DNA from: Singulisphaera sp. GP187 | Lineage (GTDB): Bacteria > Planctomycetota > GCA-002687715 | Reading direction: 5' to 3' | Length of the DNA: 64,000 nt | NCBI GenBank assembly: GCA_945907755.1 | Contig: CAMDTN010000007.1 | Span: 856-64,855 of the forward strand | Part shown: positions 12,932 through 57,604 of the stretch, piece after piece | Position numbering within the stretch: position 1 is the first letter of the stretch | Layout of the letters: each line of letters opens with the position of its first letter | Made by a program: the position numbers and the translations under genes | The notes under the pieces: generated by a model | Database searches by the model: none | What the model was told of the DNA's origin: nothing | Seen by the model: the letters and a program-made list of their open reading frames with translations, nothing else

Positions 12932-14671
12932 CTATTTAGGCAGAGTGAAGGACACGACGCGCACGCTGAGTGCGCCGGAGTTGTCGGTATGGCCATTGTC
13001 GTTGCAGCGGGCCATCAGGCTGCCACCAGGAGAAGGCGCTGCTTCATCATCCTGCCCACTGCAGAGAATCTGATTGTCCATCGACACGAGCAGTGCACCT
13101 GTTTTGTGGCCTGAGTACAGACAATAGTCACCCCAGCCGTCGAATCCTTCGACGCCACACGATCCGATAAATGTCCCAATGGTCCATGTCCCGCTTGCGC
13201 GGACAAAAATGTAGTCGCCCGCCTTGGCTGCGATGCCTAGCGCCTGCCACTCGCCGTTGGCATAAACGCTGACCGTTACATCACGCAATGAGGACCGCAT
13301 GGCATCTGCCTCGGCAGCAGCGTCTTTCAACTTGTGCCGTTTGGTGGCGAGGAAGGCTCTCGCATCGATCACGGCTGACTCTCCATGAAGGGTTGGCTGA
13401 CTTTCAAGGTGCGCTGACAAGTCATCGAGGAGCGGCGTAATCACGGTAGTAGCTTCGTCGACCTTTGAGCGCATGCTCACGACTGTCGCGACAACCTGCT
13501 TGACATCCCAAAAATCGTCACCTGTTGGCCTGAGCGCAGTCCAAACTCCGTCGAGTTTTCTCTCAGCCGATTCGAACCCTGTGGTGATACTTGCGCGTTT
13601 CTCACGGATCTTCTCAAGAAACGCTGTGGCATTGTGTGCCGTAGCCTTCTTGATGAAATCTGCATGGAGGGCATCCGCTTCAGCCGCGGTGTTCTTGAGT
13701 TTTTGCCTAGCGGATTCAATGAAGCTGCGTACAGCGGTCACGGGTGGCTCGTTGGAGTAGTCGGGTTGGTCAGCGATGAACGCGGCCAAGTCGTCGAGCA
13801 GCGGAGAGATGCGGCCCTGCCCATCAGCGATCTTGTCGCGCAGGTCTTTGAACGTAGCGACGATCTCATTCAGGTTCCCGACAGCGCCCTTGCCATCTTC
13901 TGCGAGCTTGCGCAGTGCATCCCAGCGGCGGTCGAGCGTTTCGATCTCTGCTGCGGTGGTGTTTCGCTTCTCGCCGAGTTTTCGAGCGAAGAGCGCGGGG
14001 TCAAGCACCTTCACAAGGACGGGAAACGCGGTGACTGGTGCGGTCCATACATGTTCTGCGGTGACTGTGAGGCGACCAGACAAGTCGCGAGAGATTTCGG
14101 CGGGATTGGCACCAACAAGGACCGTCGCAGGAGTGACACCACTGCGGGGCTCGATGGAAAGCCATGAATCCTCTGTGCTGATCTTCCAAGTGAGGCCGGG
14201 ATTGCCGGCGCTCTCGAGCACGAGCTTCGTCGTGGTCAGCGCGGTGTCACCCTTCCTCAGCGTGACTTCGATAGTGGCAGTCGGCGTCGCCCTCAGCTTC
14301 CCCAAGAGCGTGTACTGAATGGGCACAGCGATGCGCTGCTCGCCCGCTGTGAACGCGATGCTCGCAGTGTTCTGCCCGTAGGCGAGTGCAGCGACGAGGA
14401 ATGTGACGGTGATGCGAGCTGGCGTTCCACCTCTCGAATGACTGAGTTGCACAAAGGGTGCCGCGCAGCTTGCGGACCATTGCACGCTCTTTTCAGATGC
14501 TGAGCAATTGAGCTCGATGTCGATGCTTGTTGGTGGGACCACTGTGGAATCATCGAGGCGCCCTTCGTACTGGACTTTGTCCGCAGACAGCGTCAGCAGC
14601 AGCGGATCAGAGCAGCTCACCAAGCAGGCTGCCACACCCATGGCGAACGACATTCTCAAGAGTGTGTTCAT
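12932..14671 (-). CDS. Lipoprotein with N-terminal Ig-like domains, two ~90-aa internal helical repeats and a C-terminal PA-IL/LecA-like lectin domain
   Basis: Signal + lipobox (…GVAACLVSC). GGAGG Shine-Dalgarno 8 nt before ATG (complement of 14669–14671). C-terminal 110 aa align to Pseudomonas PA-IL (GALLVSMDN…/…CNDNGHTDNSGALSVRV versus GALVMKIGN…/…YNDVPGTYGNNSGSFSVNI). Two internal repeats (…ISPLLDDLAAFIADQP… / …ITPLLDDLSAHLESQP…). Confidence 0.7.
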   Translation of the reverse strand: MNTLLRMSFAMGVAACLVSCSDPLLLTLSADKVQYEGRLDDSTVVPPTSIDIELNCSASEKSVQWSASCAAPFVQLSHSRGGTPARITVTFLVAALAYGQNTASIAFTAGEQRIAVPIQYTLLGKLRATPTATIEVTLRKGDTALTTTKLVLESAGNPGLTWKISTEDSWLSIEPRSGVTPATVLVGANPAEISRDLSGRLTVTAEHVWTAPVTAFPVLVKVLDPALFARKLGEKRNTTAAEIETLDRRWDALRKLAEDGKGAVGNLNEIVATFKDLRDKIADGQGRISPLLDDLAAFIADQPDYSNEPPVTAVRSFIESARQKLKNTAAEADALHADFIKKATAHNATAFLEKIREKRASITTGFESAERKLDGVWTALRPTGDDFWDVKQVVATVVSMRSKVDEATTVITPLLDDLSAHLESQPTLHGESAVIDARAFLATKRHKLKDAAAEADAMRSSLRDVTVSVYANGEWQALGIAAKAGDYIFVRASGTWTIGTFIGSCGVEGFDGWGDYCLYSGHKTGALLVSMDNQILCSGQDDEAAPSPGGSLMARCNDNGHTDNSGALSVRVVSFTLPK

Positions 14672-14833
14672 GTGATCTACCTCCAATCTGGCGGATCTGT
14701 GCCAGATGCCTCGTTTCGGCCCCAGAGCATAGACGACCTGTAACGTGCAGAGGGGGGTAGCCCAAATGGGTTGGCATGGCCCCCGGGTGGCGGATTAGAA
14801 TCCCCCGTCACCACTTTGCAGCAGGAGCCCCCA

Positions 14834-31614: not shown

Positions 31615-32361
31615 TCAGCCGTCCTTCTTCTCAGTTGCCGCCGGAGGCTTCGGGCCGGCTTCCTTGGCCTTCGACTCGGCGACTTCAAGTGCCTTTTCAG
31701 CTTCTTCCAAGCGATTGCTCATCTCTTCGATGCTCCTGCGCAGTGCATCGACGCGCATCTTTGCGCCAGCGGTGCCTAGGTGCTCGCCTCTGGTCATCTG
31801 GACCATGTGCTCGCGCATTTGACCGAGGCGCGCTGCCGCAACTTGCCCACGCATGAGCCCGTTCAGCATCGGACGGCCATGTGGAGAAGCCGCAGGTGGC
31901 GTAACGCGTCTGCCGTTGACCCAGACTTCGACGTTGGTGGTGTCGGACTTGGCGGCATCGGCGTCTTGAACTTCGCAGATCACCTCGCACACGCCTTCCG
32001 CGCCCTCGGGGCACTCGGCGCAATCGATTTTCATGCCCTCGGTGACGATCCTCGATTCGCAGCTCTCGCCGAGTTTGAGTTCAGAGCCCTCGACCTTGAT
32101 GCCTTCGAGATTGAGCGTTGCACCGTCGAGATGCATTAGCCTCATTGATTGCGCACTTGTGCTGCTGCCGCCGCTGTCACCAGCTTCAGGCCCGGCCACG
32201 CGAAGGCGGATGGCCTTGGCACCATCGGGAGCGCTAGTTTTCACCGTACGCACACGCACCACCTTGGCATGGGTGGCCTCGGCCGCCGCGGGTTCGGTGG
32301 TGCTGGAACAAGCCGCAAACAAGAGCCCGCAGGCCACCAGTCCAAGTAGCGCATTTTTCAT
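31615..32361 (-). CDS. Lipoprotein of unknown function with coiled-coil C-terminus
   Basis: MKNALLGLVACGLLFAACSS lipobox. GGAG Shine-Dalgarno before ATG 32361 (the ORF-track start at 32580 is an upstream extension). C-terminal EEMSNRLEEAEKALEVAESKAKEA heptad-like segment. Confidence 0.55.
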   Translation of the reverse strand: MKNALLGLVACGLLFAACSSTTEPAAAEATHAKVVRVRTVKTSAPDGAKAIRLRVAGPEAGDSGGSSTSAQSMRLMHLDGATLNLEGIKVEGSELKLGESCESRIVTEGMKIDCAECPEGAEGVCEVICEVQDADAAKSDTTNVEVWVNGRRVTPPAASPHGRPMLNGLMRGQVAAARLGQMREHMVQMTRGEHLGTAGAKMRVDALRRSIEEMSNRLEEAEKALEVAESKAKEAGPKPPAATEKKDG

Positions 32362-32535
32362 CAGGTTTCTCCGTAGGTTCGAGCAGGAAAGGGCACCAGT
32401 CTTCTGCGGTGCCCGGCTGCCGCGACCATGTCGCGATGTGTCCGGGTCGTCAGCGACGGCCTTGCTGGGCCTTACGGGTCGCGCAGGGGCGAGGCTCCAC
32501 GCGGCGGCGCATCCAGTGGCTACCATTGCGCAGCC

Positions 32536-33786
32536 ATGCCCATTCAAAACCCACACGCAGCGCTGTTCGCGCGCATTCATGCCGATTCAACGCGCATGGA
32601 GGCGGACTTGGCTGCTTGGGTGGCAATGGACACCCATAGCGCCAACAAGCAGGGCGTGGACGCGTTGGGAGCGCTGCTGTGCACGCGTCTTGAAGCCATG
32701 GGCTTTCGAGTGGCTGAATTGGTGAACGGTGTGCATGGGCGCACATTGGTGGCACGGCGCGGCCCCCGTCCAACGGATGTTAGTGGTGGCGACGACGGCC
32801 CGCGCAACGCGGCCACGCACCCCATACTGTTGCTGGGGCACATGGACACGGTGCATGCGGCCTCGGCGGGCTTCAATTCCTTGCAGCGCGTGGAAGGCAG
32901 CACGCACGCCAAAGGCGCAGGGGCGGCGGACATGAAGGGCGGGTTGGTAGTTCTGTTGCACGCGTTGGAGGCGTTGCATGCCGAAGGCCTGTTGGATCGC
33001 CGCGCACTCCGCGTGGTGCTGAATGGCGACGAAGAAGTGGGCTCGCCAGCGAGTGGCGAACTGATCCGCGCGGAAGCGACGGATTGCGGCTTGTGCTTGT
33101 GCTTCGAAGCAGGGCGCGTCGCCGATGGCGGCAGCACTTTTGTGACGCGGCGCAAAGGCATGATGCGTTTGAGCGTGCGCGCTCGTGGCCGCAGTGCGCA
33201 TGCGGGAGTGGAACCAAGCCTCGGCGCCAGCGCTGTGCGCGAACTCGCGGGCAAAGTTGGGCCCATCGAAGACCTCGCCGACGCAGCGACGGGCACCACG
33301 GTTTTGGTGGGCACTTTTCATGGCGGCACAGCAGCCAACACGGTTCCCGAAGAAGCCACATTGGATATTGATGTGCGCTTCGATGACGACGATGTGCGCC
33401 AGCAAGTGGAAGACGATTTGCAAGGCATTTTGCGCAAGCCGGTCGTGCGCGATGCTGCGGGGCGGCCGCGCGTGGCCACCACCATTCGCGAGCGCGTGTT
33501 CCGGCCGCCGATGGAAGCGAGCGTAGTTAGCGAGGGTCTTGCGGCAGAATTGGTGCGCCTTGCAGCCGAGCACGGCCAAGTGTTGGTGCCAGAAGCGCGC
33601 GGCGGCAGCAGCGATGCGGCCCTTGCGGCGGATGTCGGTTGCCCCGCGCTGTGCGGTTTGGGTGCTGTGGGCGGCGCATTCCACACCCGCGACGAATGGG
33701 TGGACTTGGCCAGCTTGCCACAGCGCACAGTGTTATTGGCGCGTCTGATTTTGGACCTTGGGCTGGTGCCCGAGCCGCGGAAGTAA
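32536..33786 (+). CDS. M20 family metallopeptidase (carboxypeptidase G2 / ArgE-DapE-like)
   Basis: Metal-binding motifs …LLLGHMDTVH…, …GAADMKGG…, …NGDEEVGS…, …HAGVEPS… typical of the M20 family. Start at ATG 32536. Confidence 0.85.
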   Translation: MPIQNPHAALFARIHADSTRMEADLAAWVAMDTHSANKQGVDALGALLCTRLEAMGFRVAELVNGVHGRTLVARRGPRPTDVSGGDDGPRNAATHPILLLGHMDTVHAASAGFNSLQRVEGSTHAKGAGAADMKGGLVVLLHALEALHAEGLLDRRALRVVLNGDEEVGSPASGELIRAEATDCGLCLCFEAGRVADGGSTFVTRRKGMMRLSVRARGRSAHAGVEPSLGASAVRELAGKVGPIEDLADAATGTTVLVGTFHGGTAANTVPEEATLDIDVRFDDDDVRQQVEDDLQGILRKPVVRDAAGRPRVATTIRERVFRPPMEASVVSEGLAAELVRLAAEHGQVLVPEARGGSSDAALAADVGCPALCGLGAVGGAFHTRDEWVDLASLPQRTVLLARLILDLGLVPEPRK

Positions 33787-33790
33787 TGCC

Positions 33791-35032
33791 ATGACGCAGC
33801 AACGACTGTTCATTGCAGATTCCCGCAAGCTGGATTTCTTGGACGAAGGCAGCGTGCAACTGGTGGTCACTTCGCCGCCGTACTGGCAGTTGAAGGATTA
33901 CGGTTTCCGCGAGCAGATTGGTTTCGAACAGGATTACGCGGCGTACTGCGCCGACATGGCGCAAGTGTGGGCTGAATGCCTACGAGTGTTGGCCCCGGGT
34001 TGTCGCTTGTGCGTGAATGTCGGCGATCAGTTTGCGCGCGCGCGCATCTATGGCCGCTACCGCGTTTTTCCCATTCACGCCGATGTGATCACTGCGGCGG
34101 TGGCATTGGGCTTCGATTTCCTTGGCAGCATTATTTGGCGCAAACTCACCAACACGCACAGCTCAGGCGGTGGCGTGGTGATGGGTTCGTATCCGTACCC
34201 GCGCAACGGCATCGTGCGCTTCGACTATGAACACATTCTGATGTTCAAGAAGCCGGGGGAATCGCCGCCGCCTTCGAAGAGCGCCAAAGCGAAATCTGCG
34301 TTGACTGCCGCAGAGTGGAAAGAGTTTTTCTCAGGGCACTGGACCATCCCAGGGGCTCGCAGCGAAAAACACCTCGCGCCCTTCCCGCAAGAATTGCCCG
34401 AACGCTTGATCCGCATGTTCAGCTTCAGTGGCGAAACGGTGTTGGACCCATTTGTGGGCAGCGGCACTACGCTTGCGGCGGCGAATGCGTTTGGTCGGGC
34501 AGGTATTGGCGTGGACATCGACCCATCCAGCGAAGCGCACGTGCGCGAGAAACTCTCCGGCCCCGAAGGTGGCGGGCTCTTCGAGCGCGTGGAGTTGGTG
34601 GTGGAGCAGCGTATTGCCGCGCGCCCAGCGGCACCTGCGGACGGTGCATTTTTCGGAGCTGTGGTAAGCAAGAAGGATCGCGGCAAACAGCGCTTTGTCG
34701 GTGTGCGTGATCGCGTGGCCGAAATCCTCGGCCCGAATCGCTTTGTCACTAAGGCGGGGCGCAGTGTGATGCTCTTGGGCACCGCTCCAAAGACAGGCAA
34801 GCAAACCGCGGCGATGAAACGACTGGAAGCCTTGCTGAAGGGCCACGCCTTGGTGCTGACAGACCGCCGCAAAGCGCCATTCGACGAAACGGACGGCGCG
34901 GCCTATGTGCACTTGGACAACCGGACTTTCGTGAACAGCCGCATGATTCGCGAAGGTTTGCTGCAGCCGGATGCCGCAGACAGTGCCCATCATCACGCCG
35001 CGAAGTTCCGCAAAGACGCGGGCCTCGGCTAA
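33791..35032 (+). CDS. Beta-class N4-cytosine/N6-adenine DNA methyltransferase (no restriction partner nearby) fused to a C-terminal degenerate staphylococcal-nuclease (SNase)-like domain
   Basis: Motif IV TSPPY precedes motif I DPFVGSGTT (beta-class order). C-terminal ~150 aa align to SNase (VMLLGTAPKT versus FRLLLVDTPE; AAYVHLDNRTFVNSRMIREGLL versus [21 protein letters not shown]) but lack the catalytic D/E/R residues. No restriction endonuclease gene adjacent. Confidence 0.85.
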   Translation: MTQQRLFIADSRKLDFLDEGSVQLVVTSPPYWQLKDYGFREQIGFEQDYAAYCADMAQVWAECLRVLAPGCRLCVNVGDQFARARIYGRYRVFPIHADVITAAVALGFDFLGSIIWRKLTNTHSSGGGVVMGSYPYPRNGIVRFDYEHILMFKKPGESPPPSKSAKAKSALTAAEWKEFFSGHWTIPGARSEKHLAPFPQELPERLIRMFSFSGETVLDPFVGSGTTLAAANAFGRAGIGVDIDPSSEAHVREKLSGPEGGGLFERVELVVEQRIAARPAAPADGAFFGAVVSKKDRGKQRFVGVRDRVAEILGPNRFVTKAGRSVMLLGTAPKTGKQTAAMKRLEALLKGHALVLTDRRKAPFDETDGAAYVHLDNRTFVNSRMIREGLLQPDAADSAHHHAAKFRKDAGLG

Positions 35033-35043
35033 CATCCGCACCC

Positions 35044-36144
35044 ATGGCCACACCAGAAGCGCAACCAGCTCAAACGGGAATGCTGCGCCGCATCCTCGCG
35101 TTCGGGCTGCTGGCTTTAGTCGTTGTGCTGACATCGATGATCGTCGCGCCGTTTTTGGCGGGGCTGTTGTGGGCGATCATCCTCAGCCTTGTGCTCTGGC
35201 CGCTGCATCAGGGCGTGCGGCGCTTGATGCCAGCTCCGTTGTGGTTGGCGCCGACAGTGACCACCTCTGTGATGACGCTGATGTTGGTAGTGCCGGTGGT
35301 GGTTGTGTGCGTCATCGTAGTTAACGAAGCCTCGCAGTTGATCCGCCAATTGCAAGATTTGCTCGAAGGCCGCACCGGCGACTTGGTCGGCGTGCTGCGC
35401 AGTTTGCCCGTGGTGGGCGAGAACCTCGCTGACGGGCTATTAGATCTGCGCTCGCAAGGCACCATCGTTCCGGCGGTGGTCAACGCGAATAAGAATGAGT
35501 TGGTGGCGTTTGTGGGCCGCGTCATCGGAGGGTTGTCGCGCAATTTGTTCGAGCTCACCATTTGCGTGGTCACCAGTTGGTTCTTCTTCCGCAACGGCGA
35601 AGACCTTGCGGGGCAAGCGCAGCGCGCCATTGCGCGTGCGGGCGGTACCTATGCCAGCGCGTTCATCCCCGCCATTCGCAACACGCTGCGCGCAGTGGTT
35701 TACGGGCTTGTCGTTACCGCCGCCGCCCAAGGTGTGCTGATGGCGGTGGGCCTGTGGGTGGCAGATGTGCCCTATCCGCTGTTGTTGGGCTTACTGACCT
35801 TCTTGCTGTCGTTCGCGCCCTTCGGCGTGGTCTTTGTATGGCTCGGCAGCGGCATCGCTTTGCTGTCCGAAGAACGCACGTTGGCCGGCGTGCTGCTGAT
35901 CCTCTACGGGTTCCTCGTGGTCAGCAGCATCGACAATGTCCTGCGCCCGATCTTCATTGGGCGCGCGGCCAAACTGCCCTTCTTGCTGGTGTTCATCGCC
36001 ATTCTGGGCGGCATTTCCAGCTTCGGATTGGTGGGCTTGTTCCTTGGGCCCGTCGTTGTGGCCGTTGCGCTAACTCTGTGGCGCACTTGGGTGCAAACCC
36101 GCGAGGCACCGACGGATGCGCCGTCAACGACTGCAGGTCAGTGA
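35044..36144 (+). CDS. AI-2E family transporter (PerM/TqsA/YdiK-like, UPF0118)
   Basis: 366 aa with 8 transmembrane helices and a family-typical central loop. Confidence 0.85.
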   Translation: MATPEAQPAQTGMLRRILAFGLLALVVVLTSMIVAPFLAGLLWAIILSLVLWPLHQGVRRLMPAPLWLAPTVTTSVMTLMLVVPVVVVCVIVVNEASQLIRQLQDLLEGRTGDLVGVLRSLPVVGENLADGLLDLRSQGTIVPAVVNANKNELVAFVGRVIGGLSRNLFELTICVVTSWFFFRNGEDLAGQAQRAIARAGGTYASAFIPAIRNTLRAVVYGLVVTAAAQGVLMAVGLWVADVPYPLLLGLLTFLLSFAPFGVVFVWLGSGIALLSEERTLAGVLLILYGFLVVSSIDNVLRPIFIGRAAKLPFLLVFIAILGGISSFGLVGLFLGPVVVAVALTLWRTWVQTREAPTDAPSTTAGQ

Positions 36145-39703: not shown

Positions 39704-42700
39704 TCACGATGCCGAGAAAAGCCAGCGTAGGTCGTCGGCTTCCATGCCGGGGGTGGCGCCGGCATCTGGTCCGAGCAGTGCTTCGGCCAAGGCGCGTTTG
39801 CGCTCTTGCAGTTCGAGGATGCGCTCTTCGATGCTGCCGCGCGTAACCATGCGGTACGCGAACACTGGCTTTTCCTGGCCGATGCGATGGGCGCGGCCAA
39901 TGGCTTGCGCCTCCACTGCCGGGTTCCACCACGGGTCCATTAGGAATACATAATCTGCAGAGGTCAGATTCAGGCCCGTGCCGCCAACCTTCAGGCTGGT
40001 GAGGAGCACTGCCGCGCCGCCCTCCTGCTCGAAAGCGCGCACTACGCCTTCGCGATCTTTGGTGGTGCCGTCCAGCCGCGCGTGCGCCACACCGTCACGC
40101 TGCAAGCGCACGCTGATGATGTCCAGGAACGAAACGAATTGTGAGAACACCAGCGCGCGGTGCCCGGCGGCCAAGACATCGGCAAGCTCTTCGACCAGCG
40201 CTTCTACTTTGCCGCTGGGTTCGTCGCGCAGCGCTGGATCGACCAACCCTGGGTGGCATGCTGCTTGGCGCAAGCGCAGCAGCGCTTCCAGCACGGTGAA
40301 GTTGTCGACGCGGCTGCCGCTTTCCAGCGGGCCCAGCACATCACGGCGCGCGGCGGCAAGCAGTGTTTGGCTCAGCTTTTCCTGCGCTGGTTCGGGCTCG
40401 GCGTGAATCACTTGTTGCGTCAGCGGTGGCAGGTCCGGTAGCACCGCTTCCTTGGTGCGCCGCAGCACGAATGGGCGCACTGCGCGTGCGAGCGATGCTG
40501 TGAAGTTGGCGCTGACGCCGCCGTTCATTGCGGCCATGAAGCGGCGCTCCTCGCCGAGGATGCCGGGGTTCACGGCGTCCAAGATGGCCCACAAATCGCG
40601 CGCACTATTTTCTACGGGCGTGCCAGTGAGTGCCAATTTCAGCGGCGCTTGCACTGCGCGCACTGCTTGGGCGCTGCGGGTTGCTGGGTTGCGCACCATT
40701 TGCGCTTCATCCAGAACCAACAGACTCAATTGGTGCCCTTCCAGTTCGACAACGTCGCGTTGCAGCGTGCCGTACGTTGTCAGAACCACATCGGCATCAC
40801 CGAGAGATTCGAATTCGCGAGCAGCGCCATGGTGGCGCAGAACTTTTAGCGTCGGTGCGAAACGCGCGAGTTCGGATTCCCAATTCCATAGCAGCGATGA
40901 CGGCGCGACCACCAGTGCAGGGTGCCAAGGTTCTCCCGCGTTGCGGGCCTGCGCGCGCAGCCCCAACAGCAACGCCAACACCTGCACAGTTTTCCCAAGG
41001 CCCATGTCGTCGGCGAGAACACCGCCAACACCTTCGCGCGCCAGCGAATGCAGCCACGACAAACCGTCGCATTGGTAAGGGCGCAGCGTGGCTTGCAAGT
41101 CTGTTGGTGGTGCGATGGCCTCCGGCGCGGCCAGACGAGCGAGGCTGCCCTTCAACGAGAGCGCGCCGCTGGCATCAGATTCCAACAACGGTTCCAACAG
41201 CAGCGCTTGCGCACGACTGACTTTGGTTGGGTCGCTGACCAACGCTGCAATGCCGCCCAGGCGTTCGGCGAGGTCGCCGTCAACCAGCAGCAAGCCTTCA
41301 GCGTCGAGATCGAGAAAGCGGCGTTCGTTGGCTGCCTTCAACGCGCCCAGCAACGAAATGATTTCGCCGTCATCGCAGCGCACTTCGCCGCCAAGGCAGA
41401 GGCGTCCATTGTTGGTGGACAGCGACAATTGCGAGTGCACCACGCGTCGCACAGGGCGGCCGTCTAAGCGCAAACGCCACCCGCGTTGCAGCAACATGCG
41501 TGCGGTGGTGTCGAACGCGCCGGCGCCGGCATCGAAGCGCCCGACGATGCCGGGCTCGACTGCGAGGCCAGGGATTCCCTCGGCCTCCTGCAAGAATCGC
41601 TGTTCCGCTTCGGCATCGCGCAAGTACTGCGCTGGGGCGGTGCTGTCGGTGACGATCCGTGCGGCGCTCTCTGGTTGAACTTCGGTGCCACCGTAGAGAA
41701 AACTGACGCGGCCTTCGAAAGTGCGCGGGTGGTGTTGCAGGGTCATGCGCGGCACCGGAGTGCAGAGCGTCAATGGCAGCGGGGCTGTGGCGCCGGGAGG
41801 TTGCAGGCGGGGGAGAGGGCCGCTCCGCGCGAGCTTGTCGACGAGGCTGGCCCAGTCCGCAGCGGGCAACTGCACACTGCGCCCGCGCAGCATCAAGCCT
41901 GGCCATTTGTCTGCGCCGTGTTGATTCACGCGATGCACGCATCCATTCCTAATGGCGAGGCAGTCGCGGCCTTCGACGATGGCGTCGGCATCTTGCAGCG
42001 CGAAGCTGCGTCCGCCTTCGTCGACAAGGCGCCCTTGCAGCGTCACTTCGCCGCCGCGCTCTGCTGGCATGAAGGCGAGGACCAAATCCAAATCTGCGCC
42101 GCGCTTACTTTGCAGGGGCATGGCGCCGCAGCGCGCGAGCCCAGTACTCACGATGCGCATGAGCAACGGCGCTGCATCTGGCCCGCGCAAAGCCCACGGC
42201 CCCTGCGGCTGCGTCAGCCCACCAAAACCATCGCGCCCTCCAGCGATGGCACCGATTCCCAAGACGGTGGTGCGCAATCCCTTGTCTGCGATGCGGTCGA
42301 TGGTCTCGCCATCCAGCATTAGTGCGCGACCGTTCGCGTCCCTCGCCCCAAGCTGCCCTTGCTCCCCATCCGCCATGACGCTGAGGTATGCGGTGCCAGC
42401 CTCCGCCACGCCGCTGCGGCTGTTGCCGCTGCCGAGGTGCTCGCGCCCCGCCGCCCGCTCACCTCCGCTCGTCCCTCCAACAGCATTAGTGCCCGCGCTC
42501 ACAAAAAACCAAGGATACAGCGGTAATGCGGCAGGTTGCAGCGCGGCATCGCGCTCTGCGGCGAGCTTCTCGAGAGCCAGCAGCAGGGCCCAGAGATGGG
42601 CGCAGCCGGTGCCGGTGTTTGCGAAGTGTGCGCAGGTGCAGTCGTGCACCACTCCAGAGGGTGCGCGTGCGACCATCACGTCGTGATGGCGCCTGAAGAA

Positions 42701-42847
42701 ATCCACTTTGGCGCGCCCCGCATCAGGGGTGCTGCCCTGGACCAAATGCACTTTCCCCTCACGCCATAGGGCATCACCAGCTTCTCGCTGTGCCGCCTGA
42801 ATGGTGCAAGGTAGCTCCGCTGCCGCAATCGCTTTCACGCGCGCCAT
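39704..42847 (-). CDS. SNF2-family helicase/ATPase with N-terminal SWIM zinc finger
   Basis: SWIM finger CTCAHFANTGTGCAHLWALL. SNF2_N motifs LRPYQCDGLSWL…ADDMGLGKTVQ, DEAQMVRNP, and helicase-C motifs (…LLTSLKVGGTGLNLTSADYVFLMDPWWNPAVEAQAIGRAHRIGQ). Confidence 0.85.
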   Translation of the reverse strand: MARVKAIAAAELPCTIQAAQREAGDALWREGKVHLVQGSTPDAGRAKVDFFRRHHDVMVARAPSGVVHDCTCAHFANTGTGCAHLWALLLALEKLAAERDAALQPAALPLYPWFFVSAGTNAVGGTSGGERAAGREHLGSGNSRSGVAEAGTAYLSVMADGEQGQLGARDANGRALMLDGETIDRIADKGLRTTVLGIGAIAGGRDGFGGLTQPQGPWALRGPDAAPLLMRIVSTGLARCGAMPLQSKRGADLDLVLAFMPAERGGEVTLQGRLVDEGGRSFALQDADAIVEGRDCLAIRNGCVHRVNQHGADKWPGLMLRGRSVQLPAADWASLVDKLARSGPLPRLQPPGATAPLPLTLCTPVPRMTLQHHPRTFEGRVSFLYGGTEVQPESAARIVTDSTAPAQYLRDAEAEQRFLQEAEGIPGLAVEPGIVGRFDAGAGAFDTTARMLLQRGWRLRLDGRPVRRVVHSQLSLSTNNGRLCLGGEVRCDDGEIISLLGALKAANERRFLDLDAEGLLLVDGDLAERLGGIAALVSDPTKVSRAQALLLEPLLESDASGALSLKGSLARLAAPEAIAPPTDLQATLRPYQCDGLSWLHSLAREGVGGVLADDMGLGKTVQVLALLLGLRAQARNAGEPWHPALVVAPSSLLWNWESELARFAPTLKVLRHHGAAREFESLGDADVVLTTYGTLQRDVVELEGHQLSLLVLDEAQMVRNPATRSAQAVRAVQAPLKLALTGTPVENSARDLWAILDAVNPGILGEERRFMAAMNGGVSANFTASLARAVRPFVLRRTKEAVLPDLPPLTQQVIHAEPEPAQEKLSQTLLAAARRDVLGPLESGSRVDNFTVLEALLRLRQAACHPGLVDPALRDEPSGKVEALVEELADVLAAGHRALVFSQFVSFLDIISVRLQRDGVAHARLDGTTKDREGVVRAFEQEGGAAVLLTSLKVGGTGLNLTSADYVFLMDPWWNPAVEAQAIGRAHRIGQEKPVFAYRMVTRGSIEERILELQERKRALAEALLGPDAGATPGMEADDLRWLFSAS

Positions 42848-42905
42848 GATGCCCGCCTTCCGCCGCCTCACCACCCGCCCCGCGCCCCCTCCGCGCCTTC
42901 TTGGC

Positions 42906-42926
42906 CCATTAGTGCGCAACCGATCC
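42906..42926 (+). repeat. REP-like element (ccATTAGTGCGCAACCGATCC); a second direct copy lies at 43050–43070 and inverted partial copies near 43740–43756 and 45183–45215
   Basis: Recurrent 17–21-nt motif TAGTGCGCAACCGATCC and its inverse GCGCACTAAT flanking the RAYT gene and the UDP-glucose dehydrogenase 5' region. Confidence 0.55.
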
Positions 42927-43028
42927 GTCCCGCGCCCTCGCAGCTCCCGTGCGCACTTCCTAAGCCCCTAGCGACGCTTGCGCTGCAAATCACCTCTGGG
43001 TGGTTGACCCGAAACCCTGGAGTCACGC

Positions 43029-53396: not shown

Positions 53397-55443
53397 TCAG
53401 GGCGTGGGCAGCATCCACACACCGGCGGGTGGGGCGTCCGCGATGCGCAGAGCCCGCGTTGTTAGGCCCGGGGCAGCGACTCTGAAAGCGCGGCGCACGC
53501 CGTCCATTGGAGGCAAGGCGAAACGCAGAGCCACGACCGTGCGGTCCGGGTCGAAGGCGCACAGCGCTTCCAACGGATGCCGCTGCACGCTGATGCGCCC
53601 GGAGGCATCTTCTGCAACCAACACGGCTTGCAGCGTTGTTGCGTCGGAAGCGCTGCTGTCGAGGAACAGCGTGCAAGTGCGCGCGCCGCTGGCATCCGCT
53701 GCGTACTCGCAACCGAGGCACACCCAGCCGTGTTCCAGTGGCGTGTTGGACCGCAGCGTTGGCAATGCTGCCCACTGCGCGGGGCGCAGCCGCCTCGGGC
53801 GCGCGCCGGGCCGCGAGAATTCGTACAGCGTGAAAGTGCGAGCGGTGCCGGGCACTTGTCGCGGCGCCACCTCAAGCCCGGGCACTAATGGCAGCTTGCG
53901 TGTGACATCCACTGCCGCGTTGTTCGCGCGCCCCGCAGCAACCAGCAAGTCTACGGCGCAGGCCGCATCGTCGGCCAGCACCAAGGTTGCGTTTTGCAAC
54001 GCGAGCGGGCGCAGCGCCGTGGCGTCCGCTGCGGTGTGCTCAACACTTGTCACAAATAGGGCGCGCCCGCTTTCTGCTGCGACGCGGCGGAAGTTCGCGG
54101 GCTCAAGCCCGGGTGTGCCCCCGGGCAGCGCGTGCAGCACGCACAGAAGCGCTACATCTTCTGGCGACAGCGCCAAGGCAGCGGCCACACTGGCATCGAT
54201 GGGCCACGCTTCCATTGCGTTGCGCCGCGGCACACCGACCTTGCGCGCGAAGGGCACTAATTGACGATCGGCTTGCGGCAGCAGACCGATGCCATTCACG
54301 GCCAGCACGGGATTGTCGGTTTCCGCGCCGCGCTGTCCTGAACCAACGAGCAGCAACGCACACAGCGCTGTGCACCAAGCAGCGCGCTTTCGTTGTGCGC
54401 TGCGCAAGACTGCCTGCACCAACAGGAGCGCGCCGAACGGCAGCAACGGCAGCAGCGATGTCAGCGCGCCTGCGGGGCGCAACACGACGAGCAGAATCAC
54501 GGCACAACCAGCGCCTGACGCAACAATGGCGCTGGCATGGCGCTGTTCGCGCGGTGGCAGTTGGCCCGCGCTTGCAGTGTCGTGATGCGTTGCGTCTGGA
54601 GCGGCGCGCTCGCTGCGACGCGGCAGCATGCGCCAAGCGGCCCACACGAAAAGTGCAACGAAGGCCACGCCGAAAGAACGCAGCACTTCCAGCGGGAACC
54701 ATGCGAAGCGCTTGACAGAGAGCAGCGCTGCGTCGCACGCATGAGGCAGCACCGCCGCTGCCGCGGCCAGCGAATCCATTGCACGCCACGCGTCTTCGTG
54801 GTGAGCGAGGTACCAAGGGGACACAACGAGGAGCCCCATGTTCACCACATAGAACAGATTGCGCATGCGCGCGCGCAAGATGCGCTCGTCGCCATCCGCG
54901 AAGGCCAAGACATTGGCCCACACCAGCGCGCCCGGCAAACACAAAGCGCCCATGTTGGAAACAAGCGCAGCAAACCCCGCGAGGGTGCCTGCGGCCAACG
55001 CGCGCCAAGTGTTGCGGTAGCGTGCGGAACGCAACAGTTGGTCGAATGCCGCCAACGAAATCGCCGCGGCAGCGAGATTGGCGCTGAACAAGCGCGCTTC
55101 AGTGAACAGCGGCGGCAAGCAAGCGCACAAAGCCAGCGCACAGGCGGCAGGCATTGGTGCCAGCCACAGACGCAGCACGCGCGCAGCAGCCCAGAAATAC
55201 AGCGCGCTGAACAGCAGCATGGTCAGGAACAGTGTTGTGCTGTCGACACTGCGTGAGCACACAGCGGCGACGGCCGCTGCAGACATCGCCAGCAGCGGTG
55301 GATGCGCAGGGTGAGTGTGCCCTGCCCACAAGAAATCCGTCACACCTTGATTGAGCAGTATGGAATGAAACTGTTGCGCTTCGAAGTGCCATGTGGCAGC
55401 GTCGCTCATCTGTGGGCGTGCGAAAGCCCCGTGGCGCATCATC
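53397..55443 (-). CDS. Large polytopic membrane protein with ~300-aa C-terminal soluble domain (GT-C/DUF2723-like putative glycosyltransferase)
   Basis: At least 12 hydrophobic helices followed by a soluble C-terminal domain. The N-terminal ~150 aa of the ORF-track entry are Arg-rich and lie upstream of the terminator-like hairpin at 55549–55575, so the start is placed near 55443/55409. Confidence 0.55.
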
Positions 55444-55594
55444 CAGAACGCATTGAGCGCTCCAATGATCACGACACACACGATCCACGGAGTTGCTGCA
55501 CGCAATCGCTGACTCACTGCGCAGATCTTAGAGGAGGCCCGCGAGAGTGGGCGCACGAGGCCTTGACGGATCGTCAAGGCCTCGGCCAATGCCA

Positions 55595-57604
55595 TCAGGC
55601 AAGCACACGACGGTCGAGGCGAATGACTTCGCTGAGGCTCCACGCTTGGAAGGGGGCGCCGCGTGCAGCAAACGGCTCGTCGCCATCGGCGATTTCGCAC
55701 AGGTGCGCGAGCCCAGGGTTCCCCCGTTGTGCCATGAGTGGTTTCAAGAAACGCTTCCGCGCCGCTCGCTTCGCAGCGCTTGTATGTCCGCGCGCGGCCA
55801 CCCACGCTTCGACGAACGGCCCAGCCAACCATGGCCACGCCGTGCCCTGATGGTAGGCCGCGTCGCGCTCGGCGCTGGTGCCGGTGCAGTGGCCGCAATA
55901 GCGCGCGTCACCAGGGTCCAGCGTGCGCAATCCGTGTGGCGTCAGCAACGCCATCTCTACATGCTCCAACATGGCTTTGGCCGTGGCGCGTGGCACTAAT
56001 GCCAACGGCAGCCCGCCTAGCGCCAAAACTTGGTTGGGCCTCAAAGTGGAATCGTCTTGGTTGGGCACATGTTCGCAGTCCACGACATCGCGCAAGTGTG
56101 TCTTGCCCTTCACCACGAAGCGCTTGCGGAAGCTGCGTTGCCCGCGCGCCAAGAATGCGGCGAAGGTGCGGTCGTGCTTCTTCATGGCGGATAGGGCGTT
56201 CAGCCACAGCGCTTGAATTTCCACTGCTTTTCCTGTGCGCGGCGTGACAGCAGTGCCGGCGTGCATGGCGTCCATCCAAGTCAATTGCGAGTTGGGAGTG
56301 CCGTGCGAAAGCAAACCGTCGGCGCACAGTTGCAGCAGCGGATGTTCGCCGCGGGCGATGCAGCGCAGCACCGTCAGCGCTGCGGCGCGCAGTAGTTTTG
56401 CATCGCGCGGGCGCAAGGTGGCGCATTTCAAATGTTCGGCCACCACCAATGCGAACCACAGCGGGGCGTCGGCGCTGTTCAACAACGGAGCGCCATCGTG
56501 TTCGTGGAAGCAGTTGGGCAGCGAACCATCGGTGCCGACCAAACGGGCCCAAGTCAGCAAGACCTTGCTGGCATCGTCGATGCGCCCGGTTGCATGCAGC
56601 AGCCCGCGCAAGGCAATGAAAGTGTCGCGACCGTAATCGACGAACCATGGATAGCCCGCGATGATCGAGAGCCCGTTGGCACCGGGATCGCTCGCGAGCT
56701 GCGGCATTCCGAGCGCCGGAGCATCTACGCGGCGCACCACAAAGGCATCGGCGGCGCGTTCCATGGGGCGTGCGAAAGCGCGGCGACGGCGGGCTTCAGC
56801 ACTACGCGCGAGCTTTGCAAAGCGCAGCACATCCAGCGGTGCTTCGCTGCACTCCGCGCCGGCCAGTGCCACGACGGCAGCCTCAGACGCTGCAAGGTCT
56901 GCTGAAAACACTCCGGGCTGCCACAAGTCTTCAATGTTGTCGCAACCACGCGCGGCTTCTTCTGCAAGATGAAAATCGAACCACCACTGCGGCTCGCTAG
57001 TCCAAGGGGCGTTGGAGCGCAGCAGCAAACGCGGCGCCTCTAGGCCAAGCTCTGCTTCGAACCCGTGTTCGTCGCAAGCGCAGATGCGCGCGCTGTCGTG
57101 CGCACGGATTAAGTGGTGGTGCGGCGAACCAGACAGCAGCGGGCGTGCATGCAACCACGCGGCGCCTTCGCCTTTGACGCGCTTCGCCAACAGCACCATG
57201 GCGTCATGGCCATGCACCATGAAGCACTCCAATTCGATCTCTGTGCCATCAGGCACGCGCACGCGTTGGCGCGGCCAAGGCTCGGTGCTGAAGGACAGCA
57301 GCGTGCCCACACTTGCTGGGGATTCCGTGCCGTCGGCGAAACGCGCCGTGCTGATGGGCCATGTGCCCGCATCGGTTTGCACGAACAAGATCATGTCCTT
57401 CAGCAGGTTGTAACGGCGCACCGGTGGCGCAGCAGCAACGGTGAACAGGCTGTGATAGCGGCGCGTGCGGCTGCCGTGCACAGGCATGCTGGCGTAACCA
57501 CCAAGCCCATTGGTTTCCAACCACTCGCTGCCGTGCAGCGGCAGTGCGCTGGAACGTATCGGCGCTGCCTTCTTCGTAGCTCTTGTCCGTTTCTTTGCTT
57601 TCAT
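55595..57604 (-). CDS. Glycogen debranching enzyme-like protein (amylo-alpha-1,6-glucosidase family, GDE_N + GDE_C)
   Basis: N-terminal LHGSEWLETNGLGGYAS motif of the GDE N-domain. C-terminal (alpha/alpha)6 barrel region. Start ATG 57604 (MKAKKRTRATKK…). Confidence 0.85.
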   Translation of the reverse strand: MKAKKRTRATKKAAPIRSSALPLHGSEWLETNGLGGYASMPVHGSRTRRYHSLFTVAAAPPVRRYNLLKDMILFVQTDAGTWPISTARFADGTESPASVGTLLSFSTEPWPRQRVRVPDGTEIELECFMVHGHDAMVLLAKRVKGEGAAWLHARPLLSGSPHHHLIRAHDSARICACDEHGFEAELGLEAPRLLLRSNAPWTSEPQWWFDFHLAEEAARGCDNIEDLWQPGVFSADLAASEAAVVALAGAECSEAPLDVLRFAKLARSAEARRRRAFARPMERAADAFVVRRVDAPALGMPQLASDPGANGLSIIAGYPWFVDYGRDTFIALRGLLHATGRIDDASKVLLTWARLVGTDGSLPNCFHEHDGAPLLNSADAPLWFALVVAEHLKCATLRPRDAKLLRAAALTVLRCIARGEHPLLQLCADGLLSHGTPNSQLTWMDAMHAGTAVTPRTGKAVEIQALWLNALSAMKKHDRTFAAFLARGQRSFRKRFVVKGKTHLRDVVDCEHVPNQDDSTLRPNQVLALGGLPLALVPRATAKAMLEHVEMALLTPHGLRTLDPGDARYCGHCTGTSAERDAAYHQGTAWPWLAGPFVEAWVAARGHTSAAKRAARKRFLKPLMAQRGNPGLAHLCEIADGDEPFAARGAPFQAWSLSEVIRLDRRVLA

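Follow-up and report, generated by a model that had tools for sequence, protein, structure and literature searches.

Why would a bacterium keep a DNA methyltransferase gene with no restriction gene at its side, and what purpose would the nuclease-like tail of such an enzyme serve? These questions are raised by the gene at positions 33791-35032 (+) of a 64,000-nucleotide stretch of DNA from Singulisphaera sp. GP187 (Planctomycetota), the whole of which was analysed and is referred to below as the window. The product joins an N-terminal methylase domain to a C-terminal domain related to staphylococcal nuclease (SNase). We propose that it is an orphan Type II beta-class methylase that came from an MjaI-type restriction-modification (RM) system whose endonuclease has been lost, that it is predicted to form N4-methylcytosine (m4C) at CTAG, and that its catalytically dead SNase domain probably serves as a non-specific DNA clamp. 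We put the probability of this reading as a whole at about 0.65.

The gene is complete and encodes 413 amino acids (aa) followed by a stop codon, as indicated by the list of open reading frames (ORFs), by a 413-aa database protein that is 100% identical to the product and by homologue alignments. These alignments begin at MTQQRLF, that is, at the ATG at 33791; a longer version from a TTG at 33758, which would overlap the upstream gene at its end, was rejected because homologues do not support it. Residues 1-256 (33791-34558) form a beta-class N4/N6 amino-methyltransferase domain. Pfam family PF01555 (N6_N4_Mtase) matches residues 22-246 with an E-value of 8.7e-37 and 127.6 bits against a cutoff of 26.7, and the structure of TTHA0409 (PDB 2zie) matches residues 4-256 with an E-value of 7e-62. 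In a Foldseek structure search of the methylase, TTHA0409 ranked first, followed by a rotifer N4-cytosine methylase (N4CMT), CcrM, M.RsrI and M.PvuII. Both signature motifs can be read directly from the sequence and are invariant in the family: the catalytic motif IV, TSPPY, at residues 27-31 (33869-33883), and the S-adenosylmethionine-binding motif I, DPFVGSGTT, at residues 219-227 (34445-34471; columns D219-T227). Motif IV lies N-terminal to motif I, which is the circularly permuted order of the beta class, and the profile match and the motif order bear out the first-pass annotation, which had named a beta-class amino-methyltransferase from SPPY followed by DPFVGSGTT. The serine variant of motif IV (SPPY) is the N4-cytosine type, as opposed to the DPPY of N6-adenine enzymes, and TSPPY has been tied to methylases that produce m4C (PMC7708080).

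The methylase domain is followed by a poorly conserved and probably flexible linker (residues 257-302; 34559-34696). In the full-length AlphaFold2 (AF2) model, the predicted local distance difference test score (pLDDT) falls below 50 at residues 259-264 and 285-300. The linker is only 57% identical to that of an orthologue whose methylase as a whole is 82% identical, its ratio of nonsynonymous to synonymous substitution rates (dN/dS) is 0.20, and its length differs across the family alignment. The remaining residues, 303-413 (34697-35029), form a basic domain with the SNase type of OB-fold and a degenerate active site. Its relationship to SNase emerged solely from a family profile and a structure model and not from single-sequence scans: the C-terminal 163 aa of the window protein alone gave no Pfam or NCBIfam match even at E<=1, although they are clearly homologous to the C-termini of full-length relatives in the alignment. 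In those relatives PF00565 was found in 16 of 20 C-termini (best E-value 1e-12), and a profile of the 20 C-termini matched S. aureus nuclease chains in the PDB with an E-value of about 5e-6; hhalign aligned the family C-terminal profile with SNase at 90% probability, over the C-terminal half only. An AF2 model of residues 296-413 had a pLDDT of 92, and its best Foldseek matches in the PDB were all staphylococcal nuclease, with a probability of 1.00 and template-modelling (TM) scores of 0.65-0.72. The SNase fold is thus supported by profile and model. A C-terminal SNase OB-fold of about 150 aa had been claimed before; the fold stands, and the folded part has to be reduced to about 110 aa, preceded by a linker of about 45 aa. 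A Foldseek search found no solved structure that joins a methylase to an SNase-like domain.

The C-terminal profile also picked up proteins with three to five tandem SNase domains (P0130, P0131, P0137, P0155, P0161 and P0269). Some of them, probably nucleases that are secreted, are fused to a Lamin-tail (LTD), PQQ beta-propeller or Lcl_C domain. All were rejected as relatives of the methylase family, being ordinary multi-SNase proteins; that the profile matches them at all shows that the dead domain has stayed close to the SNase family.

The active-site positions of SNase were mapped onto the domain by equating the family motif V-R-L-L-G-(I/V)-x-P with F34-R35-L36-L37-L38-V39-D40-T41 of SNase and by the hhalign register; as the latter covered the C-terminal half, the placement of Asp21, Arg35, Asp40 and Glu43 relied on the RL.G(I/V)x motif together with the secondary structure of the AF2 model. 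All five catalytic or metal-binding positions are replaced in the window copy (D21 by N316, R35 by M327, D40 by A332, E43 by T335 and R87 by D368), in agreement with the earlier statement that the catalytic Asp, Glu and Arg positions had changed. Among 120 family members, the Asp40 column contains no Asp (R in 39, K in 20, A in 19 and others in the rest), and the Glu43 and Arg87 columns are unconserved. The Arg35 equivalent is retained in about half of these members and an acidic residue at the Asp21 equivalent in some, and the equivalents of Tyr91 and Asn100, together with the Gly of the RL.G motif, are invariant. Judged from these alignments, the loss of the Ca2+-binding and catalytic residues is a family-wide trait that is not peculiar to the window copy. 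The domain is also strongly basic: the isoelectric point (pI) is 10.3 for the window copy, and the family median is 9.6, compared with 7.7 for the methylase domain. Lys or Arg is conserved at positions 378 (97%), 387 (98%) and 405 (87%). Taken together, the basic character, the conserved Lys and Arg residues and the lost catalytic residues fit a nucleic-acid-binding, non-catalytic module, so that the earlier preference for a DNA-binding module over a nuclease appears plausible.

How widely this architecture occurs was evident from the homologue search, which at E<=1e-5 yielded over 7,800 clusters at 90% identity. Coverage of the query reached 93% or more in 117 of the 120 best homologues, and about one third of these 120 have precomputed annotations of both PF00565 and PF01555. 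With one genome taken per species, relatives were found in at least 595 GTDB species, spanning Planctomycetota, Deltaproteobacteria, Bacteroidota, Clostridia, Brachyspira, Ignavibacteria, Elusimicrobia, candidate phyla and archaea. The first-pass annotation had called the combination of a methyltransferase with an SNase domain unusual; it is instead the default architecture of a very large family. The fused version was absent from plasmid and phage collections, which held short relatives only, covering at most 64% of the query. Literature searches returned nothing relevant on a fusion of SNase with a methyltransferase, and no published description was found of the role of a dead SNase domain in Type II methylases.

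Most members of this family have an endonuclease as neighbour. In two complete-genome contexts (L004 and L006), a gene of family PF09568 (RE_MjaI) shares 8 nt with the 3' end of the methylase gene. An endonuclease profile was built from such PF09568 neighbours and searched against all fetched loci, and 80 GTDB loci were classed: an adjacent MjaI-family ORF was intact in 53 and fragmentary or split in 8, none was present within the flank in 16, and 3 loci were not assessable because of a contig end. An MjaI-family endonuclease gene therefore adjoins the methylase in 61 of the 77 assessable species loci, and the intact ORFs lie at a median distance of 34 nt, mostly downstream and on the same strand. 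Because the relatives are mostly linked to an endonuclease, the window copy can be regarded as a solitary derivative of a Type II RM methylase. We also considered whether the loci without an MjaI-like gene share some other partner, and rejected this, as their large neighbouring ORFs are mutually unrelated and are either housekeeping genes or genes without a known role; they include genes for an NAD-dependent DNA ligase, M14 and M23 peptidases, an oxidoreductase and a CARF protein.

Several further observations were made at these loci. The short or split endonuclease ORFs lie downstream of the methylase in L015, L021, L027, L047, L049, L067, L078 and L085, with pieces of 110 and 297 aa in L021 and of 111 and 116 aa in L049; apart from the cases at contig ends, they look like genes decaying towards the orphan-methylase state. 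The CARF-domain gene mentioned above (Csx1/Card1-like; L036:7507-8694) follows a solitary family member. Genes of DNA repair or replication adjoin several family members (L004:3278-5995, L006:4213-5988, L010:7303-9351 and L013:7357-9393), with MutS or RecJ directly upstream at a gap of 5-12 nt or NAD-dependent DNA ligase directly downstream; this adjacency may be a coincidence or reflect a preferred insertion neighbourhood.

For the window, a search of all 64 kb at E<=10, with the HMMER filters switched off, gave no endonuclease ORF of the MjaI family. Directly upstream lies an M20 peptidase gene (32428-33786 (+); PF01546 and PF07687), which ends with TAA at 33786 and leaves a 4-nt gap to the methylase gene; we regard it as context and not as a functional partner. 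Directly downstream, an AI-2E family transporter gene (35044-36144 (+); PF01594, E-value 3.8e-39) holds the position at which most relatives have the restriction gene. The two neighbours, the 4-nt gap and the lack of a flanking restriction gene had all been noted before, and Pfam matches, coordinates and the window-wide search confirm them. The other genes of the window include those for MetH, an ABC-F protein, an NMT1/ABC transporter, elongation factor P (EF-P), a raffinose-synthase-like protein, an SNF2 helicase, an M1 peptidase and a glycogen debranching enzyme, and by this gene content the window is a housekeeping chromosomal region. The same gene order, including the AI-2E transporter, occurs in L001, a metagenome-assembled genome (MAG) of Planctomycetota whose methylase is 82% identical; in L002 and L003, whose methylases are 56% identical, an M20 homologue likewise lies directly upstream and no endonuclease is present. 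In a neighbour-joining tree, the window copy, L001 and L002/L003 form a clade of their own, which probably belongs to Planctomycetota. The remaining solitary copies are dispersed among the endonuclease-linked ones, which indicates repeated loss of the endonuclease. In a comparison with the L001 orthologue, the methylase domain has a dN/dS of 0.11 and the SNase-like domain one of 0.03, the overall value being 0.10, with dS near saturation; such low values indicate purifying selection on both domains, which have thus been maintained without an endonuclease partner.

For the predicted specificity, the endonuclease family provides the main clue. MjaI of M. jannaschii cuts CTAG (PMC2615612) and M.MjaI makes m4C at CTAG (PMC11033074); on plasmid pFZ1, M.MthZI is paired with an annotated MjaI-family endonuclease, MthZI being a characterised CTAG system. 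Within the methylase domain, a loop of residues at about 116-147, between motifs VIII and X, is the putative DNA-recognition loop, lying where beta-class enzymes read DNA. In the alignment it is the same in solitary and endonuclease-linked members (K118, T120, G126, G127, M131-S133, P135, P137, N139, G140, D145 and E147), so that the same target is expected for both. Because MjaI-family endonucleases flank most relatives and this loop is invariant, the window enzyme most likely methylates N4 of cytosine in CTAG, as far as can be predicted from gene association and motifs. CTAG itself occurs 32 times in the window, compared with 72 times expected from a Markov model (observed-to-expected ratio (O/E) 0.45). 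We rejected this depletion as evidence of specificity, since the depletion of ACGT, TATA and TTAA is stronger and bacteria commonly avoid CTAG. ACGT is rarer than CTAG relative to expectation, with 35 occurrences against 163 expected over positions 1-64000 (O/E 0.21), and the O/E is 0.21 for TATA and 0.34 for TTAA. The scarcity of ACGT could reflect pressure from an ACGT-specific restriction system in the lineage or a compositional bias.

On this basis, a working model can be put forward. The gene would have descended from the methylase half of an MjaI-type RM system whose endonuclease gene disappeared. The enzyme would be a homodimer, as are other beta-class enzymes including TTHA0409, and its N-terminal domain would transfer a methyl group to N4 of cytosine in CTAG. 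The SNase OB-fold, tethered by the flexible linker, would most probably bind DNA non-specifically and help to hold or scan it; by analogy with the unrelated C-terminal domain of CcrM, it may work in trans in the homodimer by gripping the non-target strand. Methylation may have been kept for a host function, for instance in epigenetic regulation or as a shield against incoming systems that cut CTAG, since purifying selection on a gene in a housekeeping region points to a host function rather than to a role in an intact RM system. We can further speculate that the dead SNase OB-fold is a family-wide accessory module, a non-target-strand clamp acting in trans or a scanning anchor that has converged functionally with the SAND-like domain of CcrM, and that the Planctomycetota clade has been domesticated for epigenetic regulation by m4C at CTAG, in a manner comparable to LomA of Leptospira; this extended form of the model is put forward tentatively, and we consider it possible rather than probable.

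Several considerations weigh against the proposed orphan CTAG methylase, and they lead to the explanations that compete with it. The assignment of CTAG and m4C is guilt by association, drawn from the endonuclease family and the SPPY motif; the depletion of CTAG is not diagnostic; the characterised CTAG enzymes are only distant relatives of the SNase-fused subfamily, for which no member with an experimentally determined specificity was found; and endonuclease-linked members share only about 45% identity with the window copy. At such a distance, the target may be other than CTAG or the product N6-methyladenine (m6A), either because the solitary clade diverged after the endonuclease was lost or because the MjaI-family endonucleases of the relatives are not all CTAG cutters. 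Several source annotations do label relatives as 'adenine-specific', and for TTHA0409, the nearest relative with a solved structure, the publications on that structure assign no specificity. Motif IV, however, reads TSPPY and not DPPY, the next solved relative after TTHA0409 is the rotifer N4-cytosine methylase, solitary and linked members share the loop that lies between motifs VIII and X, and both characterised MjaI-family endonucleases cut CTAG; we therefore consider a different target or base rather unlikely. The endonuclease search covered 64 kb, and the genome may encode a CTAG endonuclease elsewhere, either at a distance from the methylase gene or of a non-homologous kind, in which case the methylase would still belong to a working RM system, with an endonuclease that lies outside the window or is unrelated to MjaI. 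Non-homologous isoschizomers are common among Type II enzymes, and several ORFs of the window, 53400-55907 (-) and 12935-14794 (-) among them, lack a Pfam match. Yet the endonuclease is immediately adjacent in the large majority of relatives, whereas both flanks here are housekeeping genes; the arrangement without an endonuclease has been kept in relatives with 82% and 56% identical methylases; and the surroundings, with MetH, the glycogen debranching enzyme, EF-P and the ABC-F protein, are those of a housekeeping region. The survival of a complete system thus seems to us quite improbable.

The role of the C-terminal domain can be contested in the same way. The case for DNA binding is made from charge and fold, and short CTAG methylases work without an SNase-like domain, so that the domain is dispensable in principle for catalysis and specificity. 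Inactive SNase-like domains serve as interaction scaffolds elsewhere, for example in eukaryotic Tudor-SN, and the domain may accordingly mediate contacts with proteins or RNA, docking onto a partner endonuclease or another cellular factor, a role for which a long flexible linker would be suited. Against such a role stands a dN/dS of 0.03 for the domain, a sign of strong purifying selection, in a clade that has no endonuclease partner; moreover, the domain is strongly basic, with conserved Lys and Arg positions, and is attached to a DNA enzyme whose class uses additional DNA-binding surfaces. We regard an interaction module of this kind as doubtful. Far less credible is an active nuclease that would make the protein a fused RM enzyme: the SNase fold is present, the Arg35 equivalent survives in about half of the members and some members are acidic at the Asp21 equivalent, but none of 120 sequences has Asp at the Asp40 equivalent, conservation is lacking at the Glu43 and Arg87 equivalents, all five positions are replaced in the window copy, and most relatives have a separate, dedicated endonuclease. 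For annotation, the implication is that genes of this family should not be called nuclease fusions.

Some features of the window are recorded here for their own sake. At its full annotated length, the M20 peptidase ORF overlaps a 321-aa ORF on the minus strand, 31615-32580 (-), that has a lipoprotein-like signal (MKNALLGLVACGLLFAACSS); the true start of the M20 gene is probably the ATG at 32536, as suggested by the 410-aa orthologue in L001. The SNF2-family helicase, at 39707-42967 (-), has 1087 aa, of which the first ~630 residues have no Pfam match; it occupies the same relative position in L001 and lies four genes from the methylase, without evidence of a link between the two. The ORFs at 53400-55907 (-) and 12935-14794 (-) would encode 836 and 620 aa and have no Pfam match at E<=1e-5, and their status as genes is putative.

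As a member of a known family that happens to be solitary, the window protein is new, and it is a fairly ordinary orphan methylase. What gives it wider interest is that thousands of Type II methylases carry the same dead SNase domain, so that establishing its role in any one member would annotate a very large family. That role would also bear on whether beta-class methylases have repeatedly recruited unrelated DNA-binding folds for the same job.

Comparison with enzymes of known structure shows what is shared and what is particular to the window protein. Its methylase domain is closest to TTHA0409, a putative DNA modification methylase of Thermus thermophilus HB8 (PDB 2zie, 2zif and 2zig), with a target-normalised TM-score of 0.82-0.89. 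The two proteins share the SPPYW...KxY signature, and TTHA0409 is a dimeric beta-class methylase; with 297 aa, however, it has no SNase-like C-terminal domain. With the SNase or thermonuclease family (PF00565), the C-terminal domain has the fold, structural residues and homology at the profile level in common, but throughout the family it has neither the Ca2+ ligands nor the catalytic residues, and it forms part of an intracellular protein, joined to a methylase. In its overall plan, the protein is reminiscent of CcrM of Caulobacter (PDB 6pbd), a beta-class orphan in which a linker likewise connects a methylase domain to an accessory domain at the C-terminus. In the CcrM homodimer, the second subunit's C-terminal domain holds the non-target strand non-specifically and is required for activity (PMC6787082). 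That domain is SAND/PWWP-like (PMC6787082), unlike the SNase fold of the window protein, and the CcrM linker is 10 aa long, compared with about 45 aa. CcrM is an N6-adenine enzyme with a DPPY motif that recognises GANTC, whereas the window protein has SPPY, and the NCBIfam CcrM model (NF050803) gives it only 32.4 bits against a cutoff of 830. The first-pass suggestion of a CcrM-style regulatory orphan thus holds as a functional analogy and fails as a statement of membership; in our view, the likeness is functional and not evolutionary.

The characterised CTAG methylases offer the closest parallel to the history proposed here. Like the window protein, enzymes of the M.MjaI and M.MthZI type have the beta-class motif order and TSPPY, and most full-length relatives of the window protein adjoin an MjaI-family endonuclease gene, as M.MthZI does on pFZ1. 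M.MthZI itself is a distant relative, 33% identical to the window protein over residues 2-244, in the methylase domain only (E-value 7e-39); with 355 aa, it has no SNase-like domain and carries different insertions around motif IV, and the window gene, unlike the MjaI- and MthZI-type methylases, has no endonuclease partner. By these comparisons, the SNase-fused enzymes are a distinct and much larger methylase branch that uses the same endonuclease family. The short branch also has orphans. LomA of Leptospira interrogans is an orphan m4C CTAG methylase that controls transcription and virulence (PMC7708080), and the HVO_0794 family of Haloferax volcanii, also orphan and m4C at CTAG, is conserved across haloarchaea (PMC5867850). 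M.MjaI, M.BfaI, HVO_0794 and their relatives are reported to have 303-364 aa (PMC5867850), LomA is 45% identical to M.MthZI, as against 33% for the window protein, and for LomA and HVO_0794, which were compared by description, no SNase-like domain is reported. Both are nonetheless solitary, related to M.MthZI, conserved in their lineages and devoid of a cognate endonuclease, which is the same situation as that proposed for the window gene. The latter would thus be another RM methylase that has outlived its endonuclease and been kept by its host, in line with the CTAG orphans of Leptospira and the haloarchaea.

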